From NCBI GenBank assembly GCA_036379675.1, contig DASVGF010000051.1, forward strand, positions 1-54,121: 54,121 nucleotides of DNA, written 5' to 3'. Numbering within the stretch: position 1 is the stretch's first letter; each line of letters opens with the position of its first letter. Positions 7,998 through 54,121 of the stretch are shown here, one piece after another. The translations under genes and the position numbers were made by a program. Below the pieces are notes generated by a model. That model did no database searches, was not told the origin of the DNA, and saw nothing but the letters and a program-made list of their open reading frames with translations. This DNA is from Gemmatimonadales bacterium. GTDB lineage: Bacteria > Gemmatimonadota > Gemmatimonadetes > Gemmatimonadales > GWC2-71-9.

Positions 7998-8468
7998 TTG
8001 TACCTCTGGGTCAAGCTTCTCCACGTGGCCGCGGTTGTCGCCTTCCTCGGCAATATTACTACGGGTCTCTTCTGGCATGCCCATGCCGCCCGCACTCGTG
8101 ACCCCCGGCTACTCGCGCATGCGGTCGACGGCATCATCCGGAGTGACCGCCTTTTCACCATTCCGGGTGTCATCGTGATCATCGTAACCGGTGCCGTTGC
8201 AGCGGTTATCGGTGGGTTTCCGATCCTGCGGACTCCTTGGATCCTGTGGTCCTTGGTGCTGTTCGCCGTGTCGGGGCTGGTTTTCGTGTTGCGCGTCGCG
8301 CCCCTCCAGGTCCAGCTCCGAGCTCTTGCGCAGGCTGGGGTTGAACCGGGCGTATGGGATTGGGAACGCTACAAGCGCCTGGCGCGCACCTGGGAGCTGT
8401 GGGGCGCTGTTGCGTTGCTTACGCCCATGGCTGCCCTGGTCCTGATGGTACTCAAGCCGAGCTTCTAG
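7998..8468 (+). CDS. DUF2269-like integral membrane protein
   Basis: 156 aa, four hydrophobic helices. N-terminal LWVKLLHVAAVVAFLGN pattern as in DUF2269. TTG start. Confidence 0.55.
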   Translation: MYLWVKLLHVAAVVAFLGNITTGLFWHAHAARTRDPRLLAHAVDGIIRSDRLFTIPGVIVIIVTGAVAAVIGGFPILRTPWILWSLVLFAVSGLVFVLRVAPLQVQLRALAQAGVEPGVWDWERYKRLARTWELWGAVALLTPMAALVLMVLKPSF

Positions 8469-8755: not shown

Positions 8756-9871
8756 ATGAAGCCCGCTATGCCCTACCGGGTTCTTGCCCTCTCGCTCCTT
8801 GCGCTGCTGCTGGCGATCCGGCCGGGTGCCGCACAGGGCCGGCTCGCCCTTGGAGTCGCAGCTGGTCCCTCGCCCTATGATCTCGCGGGCACCGGTACCG
8901 GCACCTCCGGAGCCGCGCTCCTGGCCTGGCGGCCGGTCCGCGGTCTGGTGGTGGAGCCCGGCGTTACGGTCTTCAGCTATGTCAGCCAGTTCGGCACACG
9001 CACCAGCCTCCTCTTTCCCGAGCTCAGCGTCCAGGGGGAGCTGGTGCGCGGTTCTTTTCGTCCTTTTATCGGCGGCGGAGCTGGCTCCTCGTTCGGTCTC
9101 CAAGGCGAAGGTGAAATAGCCCTGACACTGCACGCGGTGGGCGGCGCGCGCGTCGACCTCAGCGATGCATGGTCTCTGCTCGGCGAGATGAGGATACGGG
9201 CGGTTCGTCCCTGGACCGGGAACACAGTCGATTTCCTGTTCGGTGTCAGCCGACGGCTTCAGCAGTTCGTGGGGAGACCCGCCGGCCCGACCTATCTTCC
9301 TGCTGTGCCGGTGGACCGTTCCCCAGTGGACCCAGGTCGGTTCGAGCTGGCAGGGCACCTGGGCGTGCATGTGGACCGGCCTGCGGAGGCCGATCGGGTG
9401 GTCACCGACAGAGGTGCGGCGATGTACGCCACAGCGGGTGAGGCGAGCGCCTTCTCGGCACGGCTGGGGTACTGGCTACGTCCCGCACTGGGCCTTCAGT
9501 TTGGTGTGAGTCACTCCTCCAACGCGGCCTGGGAGGGCTCGACGCCGATTCCTCCTCCTGGTTTCGCCAACCGCACCACGTACCTGAGCGCCCGCGGCGT
9601 GGTTCGCACATCGCCGGTGCGGCCCCTGCATCTGTTCGCCGCGGCGGGGCCCGCTCTCATGCTGTATGGCGGGACGGGCGAGAATCTCCGGACCAGAGAT
9701 GCGGATCTGGGTGGTGTACTGGACGTAGGCGCTCGACTGCGCATGACCCCCTGGCTAGGGGTAGAGCTGGCATTGAGCAATTACTTCTACGGCTCACAGT
9801 ATCGGGACGAAGGGAGTGTTTTCCGGCACGACCTGCTGATCTTGCCGGGGCTGGTCTTCTCTTGGAACTAG
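8756..9871 (+). CDS. Exported protein, two outer-membrane beta-barrel-like modules
   Basis: GGAGG RBS 8745-8749, ATG 8756, signal peptide MKPAMPYRVLALSLLALLLAIRPGAAQ. Alternating hydrophobic beta-strand pattern. The upstream 134 aa of the track ORF run through attC and are rejected. Confidence 0.65.
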   Translation: MKPAMPYRVLALSLLALLLAIRPGAAQGRLALGVAAGPSPYDLAGTGTGTSGAALLAWRPVRGLVVEPGVTVFSYVSQFGTRTSLLFPELSVQGELVRGSFRPFIGGGAGSSFGLQGEGEIALTLHAVGGARVDLSDAWSLLGEMRIRAVRPWTGNTVDFLFGVSRRLQQFVGRPAGPTYLPAVPVDRSPVDPGRFELAGHLGVHVDRPAEADRVVTDRGAAMYATAGEASAFSARLGYWLRPALGLQFGVSHSSNAAWEGSTPIPPPGFANRTTYLSARGVVRTSPVRPLHLFAAAGPALMLYGGTGENLRTRDADLGGVLDVGARLRMTPWLGVELALSNYFYGSQYRDEGSVFRHDLLILPGLVFSWN

Positions 9872-9921
9872 AGCGCAACGTCTCCTGCGCGTCCAGCTAA
9901 AGTCGTGTGATCGCTGCCGCT

Positions 9922-10023
9922 GCCTGACAAGCGCATGCATCCGATGGCGCGTCACCTCCAAAGGAAGGATAGGATTGTGCCCAAGCGGAGAAGCCGCCGC
10001 AGCTGATGCGCGGTCCGTTAGGC
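9922..10023 (+). repeat. attC site, type A (102 bp), R'' GCCTGAC
   Basis: R'' GCCTGAC 9922-9928, R' GTTAGGC 10017-10023, arms AAGCGCATGCATCCGATGG / GCCGCCGCAGCTGATGCGCGGTCC. Confidence 0.88.
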
Positions 10024-10047
10024 CGATCGCACGATTGAGGAGGAAGC

Positions 10048-10419
10048 TTGACTTCAGCCCCGTCGTCTCCATGCGGCCCGCTCGCGGTGCTGTTCCTACT
10101 GCTGACCGGCTGCTACACCTGGCAACCGTACGAGCACGGACCACTGCTGATAGCGGGTGAGTCCCTACCACACAATCTGCGAGCCACACGACGCGACAGT
10201 ACTCAGGTCACTGTAACTGCACCCTTCCTTCGGTCGGATACCCTCTTCGGGCATCTCGACGGGGATACTGTTGCGGTTCCTGTTCCCGATATTGCTAGAG
10301 TGCAGCGGCTGGGCTTTAGCACCGTACGGACCTTGGGACTAGTGCTCGTCCCGGCTGCGGCTTTGGGGTTGACATATCTGATCGTCTGTGGGGAGCGTGG
10401 CTGCGAGCCACAGTACTGA
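10048..10419 (+). CDS. Lipoprotein with C-terminal TM helix; paralog of 16634-16978
   Basis: LLLTGC lipobox. Shares CYTWQPY, PFLRSDTLFG, DTV.VP and RTLGL motifs with the ORF downstream of lspA. TTG start. Confidence 0.7.
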   Translation: MTSAPSSPCGPLAVLFLLLTGCYTWQPYEHGPLLIAGESLPHNLRATRRDSTQVTVTAPFLRSDTLFGHLDGDTVAVPVPDIARVQRLGFSTVRTLGLVLVPAAALGLTYLIVCGERGCEPQY

Positions 10420-30547: not shown

Positions 30548-30610
30548 GCCGCCGGTCTACCTTTTCTGTCCCTGGCAGCCTCCGCTCACCCTCTTGCCCC
30601 TCCCGGCCAC

Positions 30611-43690: not shown

Positions 43691-43735
43691 TCACTCCAGC
43701 TCACCTCTCACCTCTCACCTCTCACCTCTCACCCC
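43691..43735. repeat. Tandem heptamer repeat (TCACCTC)x4.9
   Basis: TCACTCC-AGC-TCACCTC TCACCTC TCACCTC TCACCTC TCACCC between convergent rnhA and the 43722-44582 ORF, whose stop lies in the repeat. Confidence 0.9.
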
Positions 43736-44582
43736 GGATGGCGTAGCTCGCCATCACCCTGCCGGTCACCGCATCGCCCGGCGCGCCGTAGATCTGCCCG
43801 CTCAGGGCCAGTCGGCCTCCCGGGCTCCAGGTAGCGCCTCCGAACAGCGCCGCCTGAGTCAGGTCTACCTCGACCTTTCGATTGTCGGTCTCGCCGAATT
43901 GATCGGTGAAGTTCACCTGGAATCGCGGGTGGAGCAGGTTGAGCCCTCCCCCCACGAATGGTCGTACCCGTCCCTCAGCCAACGGCCAGGATAGCGTGCC
44001 TTCCAAGCCGAAGATGTTGGGGTGATAGCGGTCGTCCGACCGGGTTCCCTGGTAACACACGCTCGCCGGGTCCTGCAGCGCCTCGTCGTTACAGGTGATC
44101 GGAGCGCGAATACGGCCAATGGTGCCGTGCGCTCGAAGGGTCATCAGCGCCCGCCGGCCCAGCGGAAACGGCCGCTGGACGGAGAGGCCTACCAGGTTGG
44201 CCTTCACATCGTTCAATGGAATGGGCGGCACCCAGCTCGCTTCGAGCATCAACCCCGCCGGAAGCTCGACCGATACTCGGGGGCGGGGAAAGGCAAACAG
44301 CAGATCGGTGTTCTCGGGACCTTTGCCAGGCCGGCAGGTCGTGGGGGTGCGGGTCTCCTCGTCGATGTTGGGCAGGTAGGTGACCTCGAGCGCAAGCCGG
44401 ACCCCGCCCGGCATCGGGATCAGCGGCGCCCCGGCTACCGAGTAGGCCAGCGGCACGGACAGCTCGGCAAAGAGCTGCGCTTCGTTCGAGGTCTTGGAGG
44501 GGAAGCAGTCGGGCAGCTGGCCCCAGGCAATAGCCGGGAGCAGCAGGAGGCCCGCGCCCGGGCCGGCGGTCAAGCCACGCAT
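43722..44582 (-). CDS. Exported/outer-membrane beta-barrel-like protein of unknown function
   Basis: Signal peptide MRGLTAGPGAGLLLLPAIAWGQ. Beta-rich alternating pattern. Confidence 0.55.
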   Translation of the reverse strand: MRGLTAGPGAGLLLLPAIAWGQLPDCFPSKTSNEAQLFAELSVPLAYSVAGAPLIPMPGGVRLALEVTYLPNIDEETRTPTTCRPGKGPENTDLLFAFPRPRVSVELPAGLMLEASWVPPIPLNDVKANLVGLSVQRPFPLGRRALMTLRAHGTIGRIRAPITCNDEALQDPASVCYQGTRSDDRYHPNIFGLEGTLSWPLAEGRVRPFVGGGLNLLHPRFQVNFTDQFGETDNRKVEVDLTQAALFGGATWSPGGRLALSGQIYGAPGDAVTGRVMASYAIRGER

Positions 44583-48229: not shown

Positions 48230-49135
48230 ATGACTGACATCGAGAAGGTGGGCGTAGTCGGCTGCGGGCTCATGGGGAGCGGCATTGCCCAGGTCGCGGC
48301 GTGTGCGGGGTTCCCCACCAAGGTACACGACGTCGCCGAGTCATACCTGGCCAAGGGACGAGCGGGAATAGTGAAATCGCTCGGCCGGATGATGGAGCGC
48401 GAGAAGATCACGGCCCAGGTGCGGGACCAGGCGCTGGGACGGCTGAGCTTTGTCACCGATCTCACGGCCCTCAGCGACTGCGACATCGTTATCGAGGCCG
48501 TCACCGAAGATCTCGAGCTCAAGAATCGGCTGTGGCGCGAGCTGGACCGTGCCTGCGCACCCGGGACGATCTTTGCCTCCAATACCTCGAGCCTCACCAT
48601 CGCGTCCATGGCCGCGGCTACCCGGCGGGCCGACCGCTTCGTGGGCCTCCACTTCTTCAATCCGGTTCCGATGATGCCGCTGGTCGAGGTCGTCCGCGCC
48701 TCCAGCACCAGCGCGGAGACGTTCGACCGGGCCTTCGCCTTTGCCGCGGCCCTCGGAAAGGAGCCGGTGGCGGCGGTGGACAGCCCGGGCTTCATCGTGA
48801 ACCTCCTGCTGGTTCCCTTCCTGCTGGACTCGGTTCGGGCGCTGGAACGGGGGGCCGCGTCCACCGTCCACCTCGACCGCGCCATGCAGCTCGGCTGCGG
48901 CCACCCCATGGGCCCGCTATCGCTGATGGACTTCATCGGACTGGACACGGTCGTCCGCATTGCCGACATCATGTTCGAGGCCTACGGCGACAGCCGGTAT
49001 GCCGCGCCGGCCCTGCTCCGCCGGATGACCGAGCAGGGACTGCATGGCAAGAAAAGCGGGAAGGGGTTTTATGATTACTCAGCTGATCCACCAAGACCGG
49101 TCGACCTCATCCAGCAGGTACGCAGTAAGCGGTAA
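48230..49135 (+). CDS. hbd: 3-hydroxybutyryl-CoA dehydrogenase
   Basis: VGVVGCGLMGSGIAQV Rossmann motif, SNTSSL, HFFNPVP and GFIVNRLL-like (GFIVNLLL) motifs. Confidence 0.9.
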   Translation: MTDIEKVGVVGCGLMGSGIAQVAACAGFPTKVHDVAESYLAKGRAGIVKSLGRMMEREKITAQVRDQALGRLSFVTDLTALSDCDIVIEAVTEDLELKNRLWRELDRACAPGTIFASNTSSLTIASMAAATRRADRFVGLHFFNPVPMMPLVEVVRASSTSAETFDRAFAFAAALGKEPVAAVDSPGFIVNLLLVPFLLDSVRALERGAASTVHLDRAMQLGCGHPMGPLSLMDFIGLDTVVRIADIMFEAYGDSRYAAPALLRRMTEQGLHGKKSGKGFYDYSADPPRPVDLIQQVRSKR

Positions 49136-49194
49136 GCGGTGAGAGGGCCCTGCCCATCACCTCCCGCTCACCTCTTGCCGCTTACCGCTCACGC
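49124..49194. repeat. Heptamer-built inverted-repeat element (copy B)
   Basis: Left arm AGTAAGC GGTAAGC GGTGAGA GGG. Right arm CCCGCTCACCTCTTGCCGCTTACCGCTCAC (49163-49192). AGCGGTAAGCGG (49128-49139) is the perfect complement of CCGCTTACCGCT (49179-49190). Contains the hbd stop. Confidence 0.85.
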
Positions 49195-49207
49195 TTCTGG
49201 AGAAGAC

Positions 49208-49795
49208 ATGCTCGGCTACGACTGGCCCCGTCTCCACGCCCTCCTGAACGACTTCCCGGCCGCCCTGCTGGTCACGGCGGTCCTGTTCGACCTGATCGGG
49301 CTCGCCACCCGCCGTCCCGGATTCCGCCAGGCAGGTTTCTGGACTATGCTGGCGGGCGGGGCAGGTGGGGTCGTAGCTGTGCTCTCCGGACTGCAGGCGG
49401 AAGATCACATCGCCCACGGCGACGCGGTTCATCGGGTCATGGAAACCCACGAGCAGCTCGGCCTCATCACGCTCGGTATCTTTGGCGTGCTGATCCTGTG
49501 GCGCATCGTGCGGGAGAAGCGCATGGCGAGCGGCGAGCGGGTCGCCTCGTTTCTCTTTTCGCTGGCGGGTGTCGGGGTCCTCATCGCCACCGGCCTGTAC
49601 GGCGGCCGGCTGGTATTCGAGCATGCCGCCGGCATCGGCACGCCCGTCCTGCAGGCTGAGCTCCAGGAGCGTACCCGGGACCATCACCACGAAGCCGGCG
49701 GGGGACACGAGGCGCCCACGGTCCCCGATTCGGCCGCGGCGCCGGCGCCGGCGGGGCACGTCGATCCCCCCGGTACGCCGCCGCACACCCACTGA
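49208..49795 (+). CDS. DUF2231-like membrane protein with His-rich C-terminus
   Basis: ATG 49208. LHALLNDFPAALLVTAVLFDL pattern, four TM helices, tail DHHHEAGGGHE...PPHTH. Confidence 0.5.
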   Translation: MLGYDWPRLHALLNDFPAALLVTAVLFDLIGLATRRPGFRQAGFWTMLAGGAGGVVAVLSGLQAEDHIAHGDAVHRVMETHEQLGLITLGIFGVLILWRIVREKRMASGERVASFLFSLAGVGVLIATGLYGGRLVFEHAAGIGTPVLQAELQERTRDHHHEAGGGHEAPTVPDSAAAPAPAGHVDPPGTPPHTH

Positions 49796-51199: not shown

Positions 51200-52864
51200 A
51201 TGCTGCCTCCTCCGGAAATCCGCGGTATCTATCGGACCGATGTGAGAGCCCGGGCAGCATATGCCGAAGGGGCGGGCATCTACCGCATCGTCCCCCAGGC
51301 GGTTTGCCTGCCCGCCGATTCCGCGGACCTGCAACAGCTCGTGACTTGGGCCGCCGAGCACCGCGTGGCCCTCGTGCCCCGCGGCGCCGGCAGCGCCATG
51401 GCCGGAGGCAACGTGGGGGACGGCGTGGTCGTGGACCTCACCAGGCTGGCGCAGCGGCCGATTCAGATAGACGCCATGGCGCCCCGGGCTGTGGCCGGCT
51501 CGAGCGTAACGCTTGCTGAGCTCAATGCGGCAGCGGCTCGGTACGGACTCCGCCTGCCTCCCGATCCCTCGAGTGGCCGGTGGGCAACGTTAGGCGGGAT
51601 GCTCTCGACCAATGCCGCGGGCGCCAGATCCGTCCGCTATGGGAGCGTTCGCCGGTGGGTCGAGGGCCTGACGATGGTGACGGCCGACGGCGAAGCCGTG
51701 GAGCTGCGCCGGGGTGACACCAGCGCTGCCGGCCAGAGCTCGGCGGCCCTCACCCGCTTCAGTCGCGACGTCGCGCCGGCGATCCGGCAGTCCGCCCAGC
51801 TCATCGCCGCCCGGTTCCCTCACACCCGGAAGAACTCTTCGGGCTACGCCCTGGATGCCTACCTCGGCTCCGGCGATGTGCTGGACCTGATCATCGGCTC
51901 CGAGGGCACCCTCGGCATCGTCTCCCAGATCGACTGGCGGTTGGACGCCGTTCCGCCTTTTCGGGCCGGGCTTCGGGTGCATCTCGCCTCGCTCGATCGC
52001 CTCAGCGACGTGGTCCGAGCGCTTCAACAATGCGAGCCTTCCGCGCTGGAGCTGCTGGACCGGACGTTTCTCGAGCTTGTCGGGGCCGAGAGCTGGGGCG
52101 GGCCCGCCGGCGGCTTCGTTCCCGAGGCCATCCTGCTGGTCGAGCTGGAGCGGAGCGACCCCGAAGCGCTGCGGCAGGTGTTGGCCGGCGCGTCCGAAGG
52201 TATCCAACGCTGGGCAACCTCCATCGAAACAGCATTCTCACCCCCCCAGGCGGAGCGGCTGTGGGCCATCCGCCATGCGGCGAGTCCCATTCTCGCCGGC
52301 CTTCCCGAGGATAGGCGGTCGCTCCAGGTGATCGAGGATGCCTGCGTGCCCGTTGATCGAATGACTGAGTACATCCGGGCCGTTCGCCGCGCGGCGTCGG
52401 AGCGCGGGCTTTCGGTGGTGATGTTCGGCCACGCCGGCGACGGCCACCTCCATGTCAACCTCCTTCCAGAGCTGGCCCGCCCCGACTGGGAAGTGGCCGT
52501 CGCCCGCCTGCTGGAGGAGGTAACCGCGGTGGTTGTCCAGCTTGGCGGCACACCCTCGGGGGAGCACGGCGACGGAAGACTTCGAGCCAGCCTGCTCGAG
52601 CAGGTGTATGGGCCGGAGATCGTGGACCTGTTCCGCCGTACCAAGGCCGCGTTCGATCCACTCGGAATCCTGAATCCCGGGATTGTGCTTCCTTCCTGTA
52701 CCGGGGCTGGCGCCGGGGCGCCTGCGATCAGCCGCCTCAAGGTCGGCCCCGGCGCCGCCCCTCTACCGCCCGACATTGAGCGCGGACTCCGTGAGATCGA
52801 GGTAACGGGGGGATATCTGAGGTCCAGGCTGGAGCTGGCTGGGGAGCTGGGAGCTGGGAGCTAG
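51200..52864 (+). CDS. FAD-binding oxidoreductase (GlcD/D-lactate dehydrogenase-like)
   Basis: VALVPRGAGSAMAGGNV FAD-PCMH motif and GTLGIV. C-terminal GHAGDGHLHVN and GEHGDGRLR motifs. Confidence 0.85.
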   Translation: MLPPPEIRGIYRTDVRARAAYAEGAGIYRIVPQAVCLPADSADLQQLVTWAAEHRVALVPRGAGSAMAGGNVGDGVVVDLTRLAQRPIQIDAMAPRAVAGSSVTLAELNAAAARYGLRLPPDPSSGRWATLGGMLSTNAAGARSVRYGSVRRWVEGLTMVTADGEAVELRRGDTSAAGQSSAALTRFSRDVAPAIRQSAQLIAARFPHTRKNSSGYALDAYLGSGDVLDLIIGSEGTLGIVSQIDWRLDAVPPFRAGLRVHLASLDRLSDVVRALQQCEPSALELLDRTFLELVGAESWGGPAGGFVPEAILLVELERSDPEALRQVLAGASEGIQRWATSIETAFSPPQAERLWAIRHAASPILAGLPEDRRSLQVIEDACVPVDRMTEYIRAVRRAASERGLSVVMFGHAGDGHLHVNLLPELARPDWEVAVARLLEEVTAVVVQLGGTPSGEHGDGRLRASLLEQVYGPEIVDLFRRTKAAFDPLGILNPGIVLPSCTGAGAGAPAISRLKVGPGAAPLPPDIERGLREIEVTGGYLRSRLELAGELGAGS

Positions 52865-52971
52865 CAGGTGGAAGCGGAGGTGGCGCTCAGGTTCCTTATG
52901 CTCGTGATGAGGATATCTTTTCCGCTCGTCGCTCCTGGCCCTTGGCTCCCAGCTCCCGGCTCCCAGCTCTC
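52827..52971. repeat. Inverted repeat of GGGAGCT heptamers flanking an ~80-bp core (copy D)
   Basis: Left GGAGCTGGCTGGGGAGCTGGGAGCTGGGAGCT (52830-52862, inside the oxidase 3' end). Right GGCTCCCAGCTCCCGGCTCCCAGCTC (52944-52969, just before the thyX ATG). Confidence 0.85.
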
Positions 52972-53724
52972 ATGGAAATCATCCGCACCCCCACTGTAAC
53001 CCTGATCGCCCGTCCCCAGTTCATCGAGCCCGCCCACCTGCCGGTTCAGTGGAAGGGCCAGTCGAGCGATGGGGAGCGGATCGCCGAGTTCGCGGGCCGG
53101 CTCTGCTACATGAGCCAGCACAACCCCGCGGGCCGGACCACGGCCGAGTACCTCCGCAACATTCTCAGTCAGGGCCACGGCTCGGTCTTCGAGCACAGCA
53201 CGTATGTCATGCTGATCGAGGGGATCTCGCGCTCGTGCAGCCACGAGCTGGTGCGGCATCGGGCCGGCTTCGGCTACTCCCAGCTTTCCCAGCGGTATGT
53301 GGACGAGTCGCATGCCGCCTTCGTCATGCCTCCGGCCATCATGGGCGATCCGGCGGGCGAGTCCGAGTGGACTCGGCAGGTGGAGGGGGCGCAGGCGGCC
53401 TATGTAGCCTCCGTCGAGCGCTTGATGACCCGCTATGAGTGGGTGGAGGACAAGGTCCATCGGCGGAAGATGGCGCGGGAGGCGGCGCGGAGCGTCCTCC
53501 CCAATGCCACCGAAGTAAAGATCGTCGTGAGCGCCAACGTGCGGGCCTGGCGAACGATGCTCGAGCTTCGCCTGGGAGAAGGGGCGGAGCTGGAGATCCG
53601 ACGGATGGCCGTGGCCTGTCTCAGGGTGCTTCAGCAGGAGGCGCCGGCTCTCTTCGCCGACTTCGAGATCTATCAATCTTCGGAGGGAGGCGAGGCGGGT
53701 CGGGTAGGATTTCATAAGGTCTGA
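52972..53724 (+). CDS. thyX: FAD-dependent thymidylate synthase
   Basis: ThyX signature SCSHELVRHRAGFGYSQLSQRY (RHRxxSxxxxSQR). ATG 52972. Confidence 0.9.
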   Translation: MEIIRTPTVTLIARPQFIEPAHLPVQWKGQSSDGERIAEFAGRLCYMSQHNPAGRTTAEYLRNILSQGHGSVFEHSTYVMLIEGISRSCSHELVRHRAGFGYSQLSQRYVDESHAAFVMPPAIMGDPAGESEWTRQVEGAQAAYVASVERLMTRYEWVEDKVHRRKMAREAARSVLPNATEVKIVVSANVRAWRTMLELRLGEGAELEIRRMAVACLRVLQQEAPALFADFEIYQSSEGGEAGRVGFHKV

Positions 53725-53728
53725 ACTA

Positions 53729-53852
53729 CGGTAAGCGGTGAGCAGTACGCGGTGAGAGGGAGGTGCGAATGCAATGACCCTCCAGGGCCCGGACGAAGGG
53801 GGTCGTTCGATGCTGGGGACCCCCGCTCACCTCTTACCGCTTACCGCTCACC
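53729..53852. repeat. Heptamer-built inverted-repeat element (copy C, long core)
   Basis: Left GGTAAGC GGTGAGC AGTACGC GGTGAGA GGGAGG. Right arm CCCGCTCACCTCTTACCGCTTACCGCTCAC (53822-53851) matches copy B at 29/30 positions. The core contains nested hairpins (GGGGTC...GACCCC). Confidence 0.85.
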
Positions 53853-53941
53853 GGAAAACTCGATCCGACTTTTTCCCCAAAAACTATTGTGGTCCCAAAA
53901 ACTTTTTCTTACCTTAGATGCCATCGAAGCTCACTCGTCTC

Positions 53942-53969
53942 GGCTCGTCTCTCGCAGACGGCCTTTTTT
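53942..53969 (+). terminator. Rho-independent terminator-like hairpin plus T6
   Basis: GGC-T-CGTCT CTCGC AGACG GCC followed by TTTTTT (53964-53969), downstream of a 70-bp AT-rich patch. Confidence 0.5.
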
Positions 53970-54121
53970 GTAGAGGAAGCCTTTGGCAGTTCGGATCGGA
54001 CTCGCCTTCAATCTCAAACCTGCGGCGCCGGCTAGTCCAGCCGGGGCGAATCGCGATTCCCCCTCGACCACCGAGGCAGCCAACCGGGGATATCGCTCAG
54101 ACCTCCAGCAACCCGATCTCT

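Follow-up and report, generated by a model that had tools for sequence, protein, structure and literature searches.

The stretch of DNA analyzed here (the window) is a 54,121-nucleotide (nt) contig, C51, of a Gemmatimonadales metagenome-assembled genome (MAG) representing a soil bacterium and comprising 2.78 Mb in 268 contigs, at 66.8% GC and 80% completeness (DASVGF010000051.1 in GCA_036379675.1). Two of its genes, hbd and thyX, are each followed by a copy of an inverted-repeat element whose arms are tandem variants of the heptamer GGTRAGC, and a third hairpin, with arms of a different word, lies just upstream of thyX. Pfam identified the flanking genes as hbd (3HCDH_N/3HCDH), a DUF2231 gene, a flavin adenine dinucleotide (FAD)-linked oxidase gene and ThyX; the nearest relatives of the window's hbd are found in Gemmatimonadales MAGs. 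As the first-pass annotation, made from the letters alone, had reported, the 30-nt block CCCGCTCACCTCTTGCCGCTTACCGCTCAC at 49163-49192 recurs at 53822-53851 with one mismatch (97% identity), and both copies have GCGGTGAGAGGG upstream (49136-49147 and 53749-53760). The features, in window coordinates, are as follows.

49117-49147, element 1, G-rich (5') arm: GGTACGC AGTAAGC GGTAAGC GGTGAGA GGG
49148-49162, element 1, loop of 15 nt
49163-49194, element 1, C-rich (3') arm: CCC GCTCACC TCTTGCC GCTTACC GCTCACGC
53729-53760, element 2, G-rich arm: CGGTAAGC GGTGAGC AGTACGC GGTGAGA GGG
53761-53821, element 2, loop of 61 nt with its own nested stem (GACCCUCC.../...GGGGGUC)
53822-53853, element 2, C-rich arm: agrees with element 1 at 29 of 30 positions
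52842-52969, element 3, different word of the same class: GGGAGCT x3, loop, GCTCCCA x3.6; dG -83.1 kcal/mol, z -4.98
43700-43733, solo arm with no inverted partner: (CTCACCT) x4.9
30582-30598, possible C-rich relic arm, between a stop codon and the next start codon, with no partner arm: CCGCTCACCCTCTTGCC

The copies lie at gene ends, as had been claimed. The last five Hbd residues and the TAA stop (49133-49135) are encoded within the G-rich arm of element 1, and the thyX stop TGA (53722-53724) lies 4 nt ahead of the element 2 arm. On its other side, 13 nt separate the end of element 1 from the start codon of the DUF2231 gene (ATG 49208). The G-rich arm of element 3 encodes the tail of the FAD-linked oxidase (...GELGAGS) together with its TAG stop (52862-52864), and the C-rich arm stops 2 nt short of the thyX start (ATG 52972). 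Gene calls that take the longest open reading frame (ORF) extend spuriously into C-rich arms, for example at GTG 49139 and TTG 52942. On the minus strand, the solo arm reads as GGTGAGA repeats over the 3' end of the minus-strand gene at 43722-44582. The supposed partial copy at 30582-30598 is present, but with a 1-nt insertion and without an inverted partner, so that it is a relic arm at most.

Folding confirmed that both copies are strong hairpins. Element 1 (folded over 49110-49215) gave a dG of -48.7 kcal/mol (z -4.78) and element 2 (53722-53860) a dG of -68.7 kcal/mol (z -4.83); as RNA of either strand, each fold was more stable than 200 of 200 shuffles, with a main helix of 20-35 bp. The inner arm ends GCGGTGAGAGGG and CCCGCTCACCTCTTACCGCTTACCGCTCAC are common to the two elements. 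When the 30-mer was searched against the genome, the two elements were mutual nearest relatives; the next-best matches had three mismatches, at four loci, and about 45 loci matched with at most five mismatches and had the inner CCC/GGG end in common. Because an irregular order of unit variants is common to the window copies at 29 of 30 positions, and because they are each other's nearest relatives, the sequence comparison points to copying between these two sites 4.6 kb apart.

Tandem-word hairpins across the genome

Tandem Repeats Finder, run on the whole MAG, reported 304 arrays of period 7, 270 of period 8, 10 of period 5, 111 of period 10 and 91 of period 11. With overlaps merged and at least 2.8 copies per array, the genome holds 225 heptamer arrays, alongside 167 octamer arrays, and these form 128 inverted pairs, that is, hairpin elements. 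An inverted partner was found within 200 nt of 139 of the 225 heptamer arrays (62%) and of 61 of the 167 octamer arrays, compared with 1 of 200 random 28-mers. The annotation's proposal of a dispersed, genome-wide inverted-repeat class with heptad substructure is thus borne out, as is its comparison with the short tandemly repeated repetitive (STRR) sequences of cyanobacteria, insofar as tandem heptamers are dispersed at many intergenic loci.

The class is diverse in its words. Heptamer families include GGTRAGC, RGTGAGA, GAGTCRC, GGGAGTC, GGGAGCT, GTGAACR, AGTGAAR and the AT-rich AGCTATT, and octamer words include AAGGCGGT and AGCGGGGC; more than 10 word families occur, many of which differ by single-base steps, and mixed arrays are found. 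A run of GGG is present only in some families (GGGAGCT, GGGAGTC) and absent from units of GGTRAGC, GAGTCRC and RGTGARA. Most arrays consist of 3-4 units. The median loop is 33 nt in heptamer pairs and 53.5 nt in octamer pairs, the median total length about 90-107 nt, and the median element has 43 paired positions and a minimum free energy (MFE) of -72 kcal/mol. Several contigs begin or end in word arrays (C153:6-35, C165:1-26 and 8373-8393, C53:24-87, C257:38-67, C118:14584-14628); the element counts are therefore lower bounds, and the repeats fragment short-read assembly.

Hairpins of this class have a fixed polarity: in 120 of the 128 pairs the G-rich arm stands 5' of the C-rich one, with one pair reversed and seven ambiguous, and since the element is palindromic the rule holds on both strands. 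Stop codons were rejected as the cause, given that families free of stop triplets (GAGTCGC, AGCGGGGC, CCCCGCCG) have the same polarity. Speculatively, the polarity may record the way in which arms arise, with G-rich strands running 5' to 3' toward the centre, like repeats added to both 3' ends of a break. An equally speculative alternative is selection, in that the C-rich RNA arm would never be left single-stranded and would offer no loading place for Rho.

Arms are complementary by word and not unit by unit: the two arms are 85% identical in the best register and still about 83% identical after a shift of one unit, in agreement with the suggestion of pairing in more than one register. The variants of the unit in one arm do not mirror those in the other, and an exact palindrome generated by fold-back duplication was rejected on this ground.

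Paired arrays are mainly intergenic and keep close to gene ends. For 91 of 122 stop-facing sides, the stop codon lies between -60 and +20 nt of the outer arm end, and in 43 cases it lies inside the array; under random placement, 147 of 725 fell within 0-20 nt. On the other side, the arm tends to stop 10-40 nt ahead of the next start codon. Among classified heptamer pairs, 48 occupy co-directional, 9 convergent and 8 divergent gene spacings.

The genome also contains a second inverted-repeat element, with termini TGTCACCCCGAGCGNAGCGAGGGGGCC / GGCCCCCTCGCTGCGCTCGGGGTGACA and about 25 half-sites. This element is nested repeatedly in the loops of hairpins with differing words, as a second kind of cargo (C153:39-117, C91:5530-5609 and C192:19540-19676, and also in C11, C55, C143 and C179), and a motif resembling it follows hbd in a Gemmatimonas MAG (L005). 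Loops are otherwise unique: almost no sequence is common among the loops of 95 gene-less hairpins or between these loops and the interiors of the gene-bearing cassettes described below.

Similar arrays, built from different words, occur downstream of hbd in MAGs of the Acidobacteriaceae, where many heptamer arrays lie around this gene; in one of them (L017) a perfect array of CTGCTAA x42.7 occupies 9750-10048, downstream of hbd. The class is abundant in the phylum of the Acidobacteriaceae too, with AT-richer words.

Gain and replacement of hairpins at gene junctions

Comparison with related genomes indicates that the hairpins are additions to their sites. In seven relatives (five congeners and the genomes L002 and L003), hbd and the DUF2231 gene are separated by 10-13 nt of the form 'TGA ggagaccc ATG', and Hbd ends in ...DLGL*. 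At the same junction the window genome has a 72-nt GGTRAGC hairpin, and its Hbd ends in ...DLIQQVRSKR*. Hairpins of other words occupy this junction elsewhere, namely GGGAGCT in G015, GTRAACG in G009 and AGTGAAA in L001, whereas G006 retains a relic only. In the hairpin-filled cases the ancestral Hbd C-terminus (DLGL*) has been recoded.

The other two junctions behave similarly. Between the FAD-linked oxidase gene and thyX, congeners G001 and G007 have 12-14 nt, and six other congeners carry hairpins of at least five different words, the left arm recoding the C-terminus of the oxidase in several of them. Downstream of thyX, the site is empty in G004, and GAGTCAG arms stand in G008 and G002 where GGTRAGC arms stand in the window, beside the same right flank (CCGGAAAACTCGATCCGACTTTTTCCCC AAAAACTATTGTG) that congeners bearing other words have kept. 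Longer hairpins are found at this site in G012 (8-mer arms around a loop of about 240 nt) and G007 (9-mer arms around a loop of about 400 nt); these inserts, of about 320 and 500 nt, respectively, are long R-to-Y hairpins, whose ORFs, listed as possible hidden PF05635 genes, looked to be of low complexity, no PF05635 scan having been made of them.

At a single site, then, a word can be replaced by an unrelated one between congeners, and these comparisons argue that hairpins are gained, lost and replaced fast within the genus. By the same evidence they are gains at gene junctions and not conserved signals; because the operon-type junctions of elements 1 and 3 measure 10-14 nt and are free of hairpins in most congeners, the neighbouring genes need no hairpin.

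Beyond element 2 lies a non-coding block (53879-54121, starting with AAAAACTATTGTG) with 80-87% identity among members of the genus. Within it, a stem resembling a canonical terminator is followed by T6 (53945-53970, stem 53945-53961), and Rfam gave no match over 53700-54121, even at E <= 1. The block may be a small RNA, or a leader or attenuator of the next gene.

PF05635 genes and the possible origin of the hairpins

The only recurrent protein-coding cargo of the loops is a gene of family PF05635, the "23S rRNA intervening-sequence protein" (IVP). The window genome has four such genes, three of which are flanked by word arrays on one side or both:

C184: bracketed by octamer arrays AGCGGGGC x4.6 and CTGCCCCG x9
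C165: between GGTAAGC x5.3 and CCCGCTTACCGCTCAC at the contig end; the word is that of the window copies
C15: followed by CGTTCCCT x6.8
C186: no word-armed bracket

The C165 protein matches PDB 2GSC, the S23p pentamer of Xanthomonas. Across the genus, PF05635 occurs in 15 of 20 genomes. Complementary inverted arrays of 7-, 8- or 9-mers bracket 21 of the 32 loci examined, with the G-rich arm on the left in 20 of these 21; a further five loci have an array on each side, six are flanked on one side alone (four of them at contig ends) and none lacks an array. IVP genes lie alone in loops of about 500 nt, and the bracketing words match those of gene-less hairpins in the same genome, as with GAAGGTC, which in G005 is found both at the IVP gene and at the thyX junction. 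Elements 1 and 2 hold no PF05635 ORF in their loops of 15 and 61 nt, in distinction to C165, C184 and 21-26 of the 32 genus loci.

Hairpins and PF05635 also co-occur across genomes. We sampled 44-144 kb from each of 10 congeners and added the window genome, giving 11 related genomes. Genomes with PF05635 had 28-154 paired arrays per Mb (72 in the window genome), and those in which the family was not detected had 0, 0, 0, 0 and 52 (one-sided Mann-Whitney p = 0.016 at the genome level; pooled binomial p = 8e-5).

Because the same word arms enclose PF05635 genes, gene-less hairpins are best read as short forms of the intervening-sequence (IVS) cassettes known from 23S rRNA. We give roughly an even chance to the proposal that the window repeats are cargo-less members of the heptamer-hairpin class of STRR and Xanthomonas type, and are foldback insertions related to IVS-type PF05635 cassettes. 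While bracketing and co-occurrence are observed directly, we infer the derivation from IVP cassettes and the mode of spread. In each element, about four tandem words of 7 nt make up the G-rich arm, which is followed by a loop and the complementary C-rich arm, and the whole occupies a gene junction from the stop codon, often one that it supplies itself, to just before the next start codon. A gene-less hairpin would stand to an IVP cassette as a miniature inverted-repeat transposable element (MITE) stands to its full-length element. When co-transcribed, the arms would form a long stem of double-stranded RNA, which, by analogy with intervening sequences, RNase III would probably cut; the host would then tolerate hairpins within operons, and mRNA stability would be affected incidentally at most.

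Several observations weigh against this reading. The 95 gene-less loops bear almost no similarity to cassette interiors and thus show no trace of internal deletion from IVP cassettes. No loop contains a transposase. No target-site duplication was identified either, although all relatives are at least 20% diverged and insertion boundaries are therefore too blurred for a duplication to be read. The unmirrored unit variants and the single-base steps between families are as compatible with slippage and drift at a site as with copying. As to co-occurrence, the 11 genomes are related, the samples small and the MAGs incomplete, and the negatives may form one clade; G010 has hairpins (52 per Mb) and no detected PF05635 gene in an assembly that is 70% complete.

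A different explanation is that these are functional RNA hairpins under selection, acting either as bidirectional terminators poor in U-tracts or, like the repetitive extragenic palindromic (REP) elements of E. coli, as stem-loops at the 3' end that shield upstream mRNA against exonucleases. Their adjacency to stop codons and high stability (the median MFE given above) are what this would predict, divergent spacers are depleted about twofold (8 of 65 classified pairs against a baseline of 24%), and element 2 lies between thyX and an apparently separate conserved unit. Members of the GGTRAGC family, moreover, are often preceded by A-rich and followed by T-rich sequence, with at least four T in 6 nt on 33-43% of sides against 6.5% in the control. 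Counted from array ends over all hairpins, however, such a tract occurs within 16 nt on only 21% of sides, again versus 6.5%; it is absent from the other 79% and from both window copies, where the tails after the stem are GCTTCTGGAG (element 1) and CGGAAAACTC (element 2), neither of them a U-tract. With some 80% of sides devoid of a U-tract, the hairpins are not canonical terminators; the organism does possess sites that resemble canonical terminators, such as the stem at 53945-53961 followed by T6. A terminator scan called none of the hairpins, which its loop limit of 8 nt would exclude in any case. For elements 1 and 3, two of the three window hairpins, most congeners moreover have a junction of 10-14 nt with no hairpin. 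One and the same site carries wholly different words in different species, and hairpins are also found in divergent regions and around genes. U-tract counts and junction comparisons thus exclude canonical terminators and tell against the terminator role that the first-pass annotation had put forward; its alternative of a mobile or protein-bound element fits the data better. Selected RNA hairpins in the wider sense we consider unlikely. A known RNA family was likewise excluded, Rfam finding none in the window at gathering thresholds.

The hairpins might also be neutral by-products of DNA metabolism, arising by replication slippage in steps of 7-8 nt, with template switching at quasi-palindromes to maintain complementarity between the arms, and with neither a dedicated protein nor movement from site to site. 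Pairing in several registers, unmirrored unit variants, families linked by single-base steps, mixed arrays and unique loops accord with this, and heptamers are the commonest class of long simple sequence repeats (SSRs) in many prokaryotes, for which polymerase slippage has been proposed (Mrazek 2007, in PMC4679880). Yet slippage does not predict the G-rich-first polarity of 120 of 128 pairs, nor the narrow arm length. The same word with the same inner GGG/CCC ends recurs at dozens of loci, the irregular order of unit variants is common to both window copies (29 of 30 positions), words of unrelated families stand beside one conserved flank at thyX, and arrays are tightly associated and co-occur with PF05635 genes. 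A purely neutral origin, too, we consider unlikely.

Mobilization of REP-like elements, including bacterial interspersed mosaic elements (BIMEs), by a REP-associated tyrosine transposase (RAYT; Y1 transposase of IS200/IS605 type) had also been raised; the elements are dispersed extragenic palindromes, and the genome does encode one Y1_Tnp protein. A PF01797 search of the genome found only this gene (C248:13455-13793), and it is flanked by ordinary short GC hairpins (CCCCACCCGTAAGGGTGGGG and others) and not by heptamer arrays, the nearest heptamer pair being 1.6 kb away. A single gene cannot explain more than 10 word families, and arms that are tandem arrays of 28-30 nt differ from REP units of 20-40 nt with a conserved GTAG head. 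This link was rejected as highly improbable. The short GC hairpins directly downstream of the Y1_Tnp gene (C248:13890-14300; CCCCACCCGTAAGGGTGGGG, GGCCGGCCCCGTGGGCCGGCC) form a REP-like cluster and represent a separate repeat system. PF05635 is regarded as homologous to Avd, the accessory protein of diversity-generating retroelements (DGRs) (PMC10053308). Involvement of a reverse transcriptase or DGR was rejected, as no RVT_1 gene was found in the 80%-complete genome and the IVP genes are solitary in their loops.

A bolder version of the proposal that the hairpins are related to IVS-type cassettes makes the PF05635 protein, an Avd-like pentameric four-helix bundle, their dedicated partner, which would recognize tandem words of 7-9 nt and create, maintain or spread the hairpins. 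The 23S IVS, STRR, Xanthomonas pairs and Gemmatimonadales hairpins would then form one cross-phylum class without a transposase. We offer this as a speculation that is quite unlikely.

Related repeats and significance

Several published systems resemble the hairpins in part. Xanthomonas genomes each carry 70-75 convergent pairs of GGGAATC arrays, and Nostoc has GGGGAYT repeats (Rehm et al. 2015, PMC4692102). The Xanthomonas pairs are likewise intergenic tandem heptamers, mostly of about four units, G-rich on the plus and then on the minus strand, and so have the same polarity and stem-loop potential. They differ in having one dominant word capable of forming G-quadruplexes through its GGG tracts, whereas here more than 10 families are joined by octamers and nonamers, and GGTRAGC units do not each contain a GGG tract. 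The host phylum differs too, and PMC4692102 reports no link to a PF05635 cassette. The cyanobacterial STRR heptanucleotides (Mazel et al. 1990, cited in PMC4692102) and the TAACTGA repeats of Beggiatoaceae (PMC4679880) similarly comprise several heptamer families in intergenic spacers, often right beside coding regions. These have been described mainly as direct arrays, with few pairs reported in Nostoc and one indirect set among 170 in 'Maribeggiatoa', as opposed to 62% paired here, in a high-GC Gemmatimonadota genome.

In the 23S IVS of Coxiella and Leptospira, which hold an S23p/IVP ORF, the PF05635 ORF is enclosed by complementary termini that pair over about 28 bp, and the 5' part contains heptamers whose copy number varies (PMC4990558); the genus ORF sits in a comparable hairpin at 21-26 of 32 loci. 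For Coxiella, the 28-bp terminal stem is cut by RNase III and the repeated heptamer is GACAGAT (PMC4990558). The window elements, by contrast, lack an ORF and lie between protein-coding genes and not in helices of 23S rRNA, and excision by RNase III, proven for IVS, would apply to them by analogy only. With REP/BIME elements and MITEs the hairpins have in common that they are short, dispersed, extragenic palindromes, variably present in relatives and nested with small repeats. Their arms, however, are tandem low-complexity words able to pair in several registers, with no RAYT association and no target-site duplication or transposase identified.

Apart from these repeats, the window appears to contain an integron cassette array without an integrase on this stretch. 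Between 1200 and 15500 lie about 15 attC-like sites of about 105 nt each (GCCTAAC...GCATGCAGCTGGCGG ... CCGCAGCTGATGCGC...GTTAGGC), a pattern that fits an R''/L''/L'/R' layout. They separate small cassette-like ORFs that encode hypothetical proteins, an alpha/beta hydrolase and a DinB-family protein. The window has no integrase, and the ORF at 1-1167 is an amidohydrolase.

The heptamer-hairpin class is known from cyanobacteria (STRR) and Xanthomonas, and the view that the repeat was not a described element holds only in part: heptameric SSRs, STRR and the Xanthomonas GGGAATC pairs have been published (PMC4692102, PMC4679880), while we found no paper that describes the class in Gemmatimonadota or links gene-less heptamer hairpins to PF05635 cassettes. 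The genome examined here provides a clean, quantified case in another phylum and offers a structural rule, namely a G-rich arm first and about four units per arm. Although tandem heptamer repeats have been known since 1990 (STRR), we know of no established function or origin for them. In practical terms, the elements break short-read assemblies and give rise to spurious C-terminal tails and extended start codons in gene calls. The comparative evidence indicates that hairpins are gained at tight operon junctions, where they rewrite protein C-termini. PF05635 is a concrete candidate partner, as its genes are almost always enclosed by such hairpins and genomes that have the one tend to have the other. 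Taken together, these points turn an old descriptive puzzle into one that can be tested by experiment.

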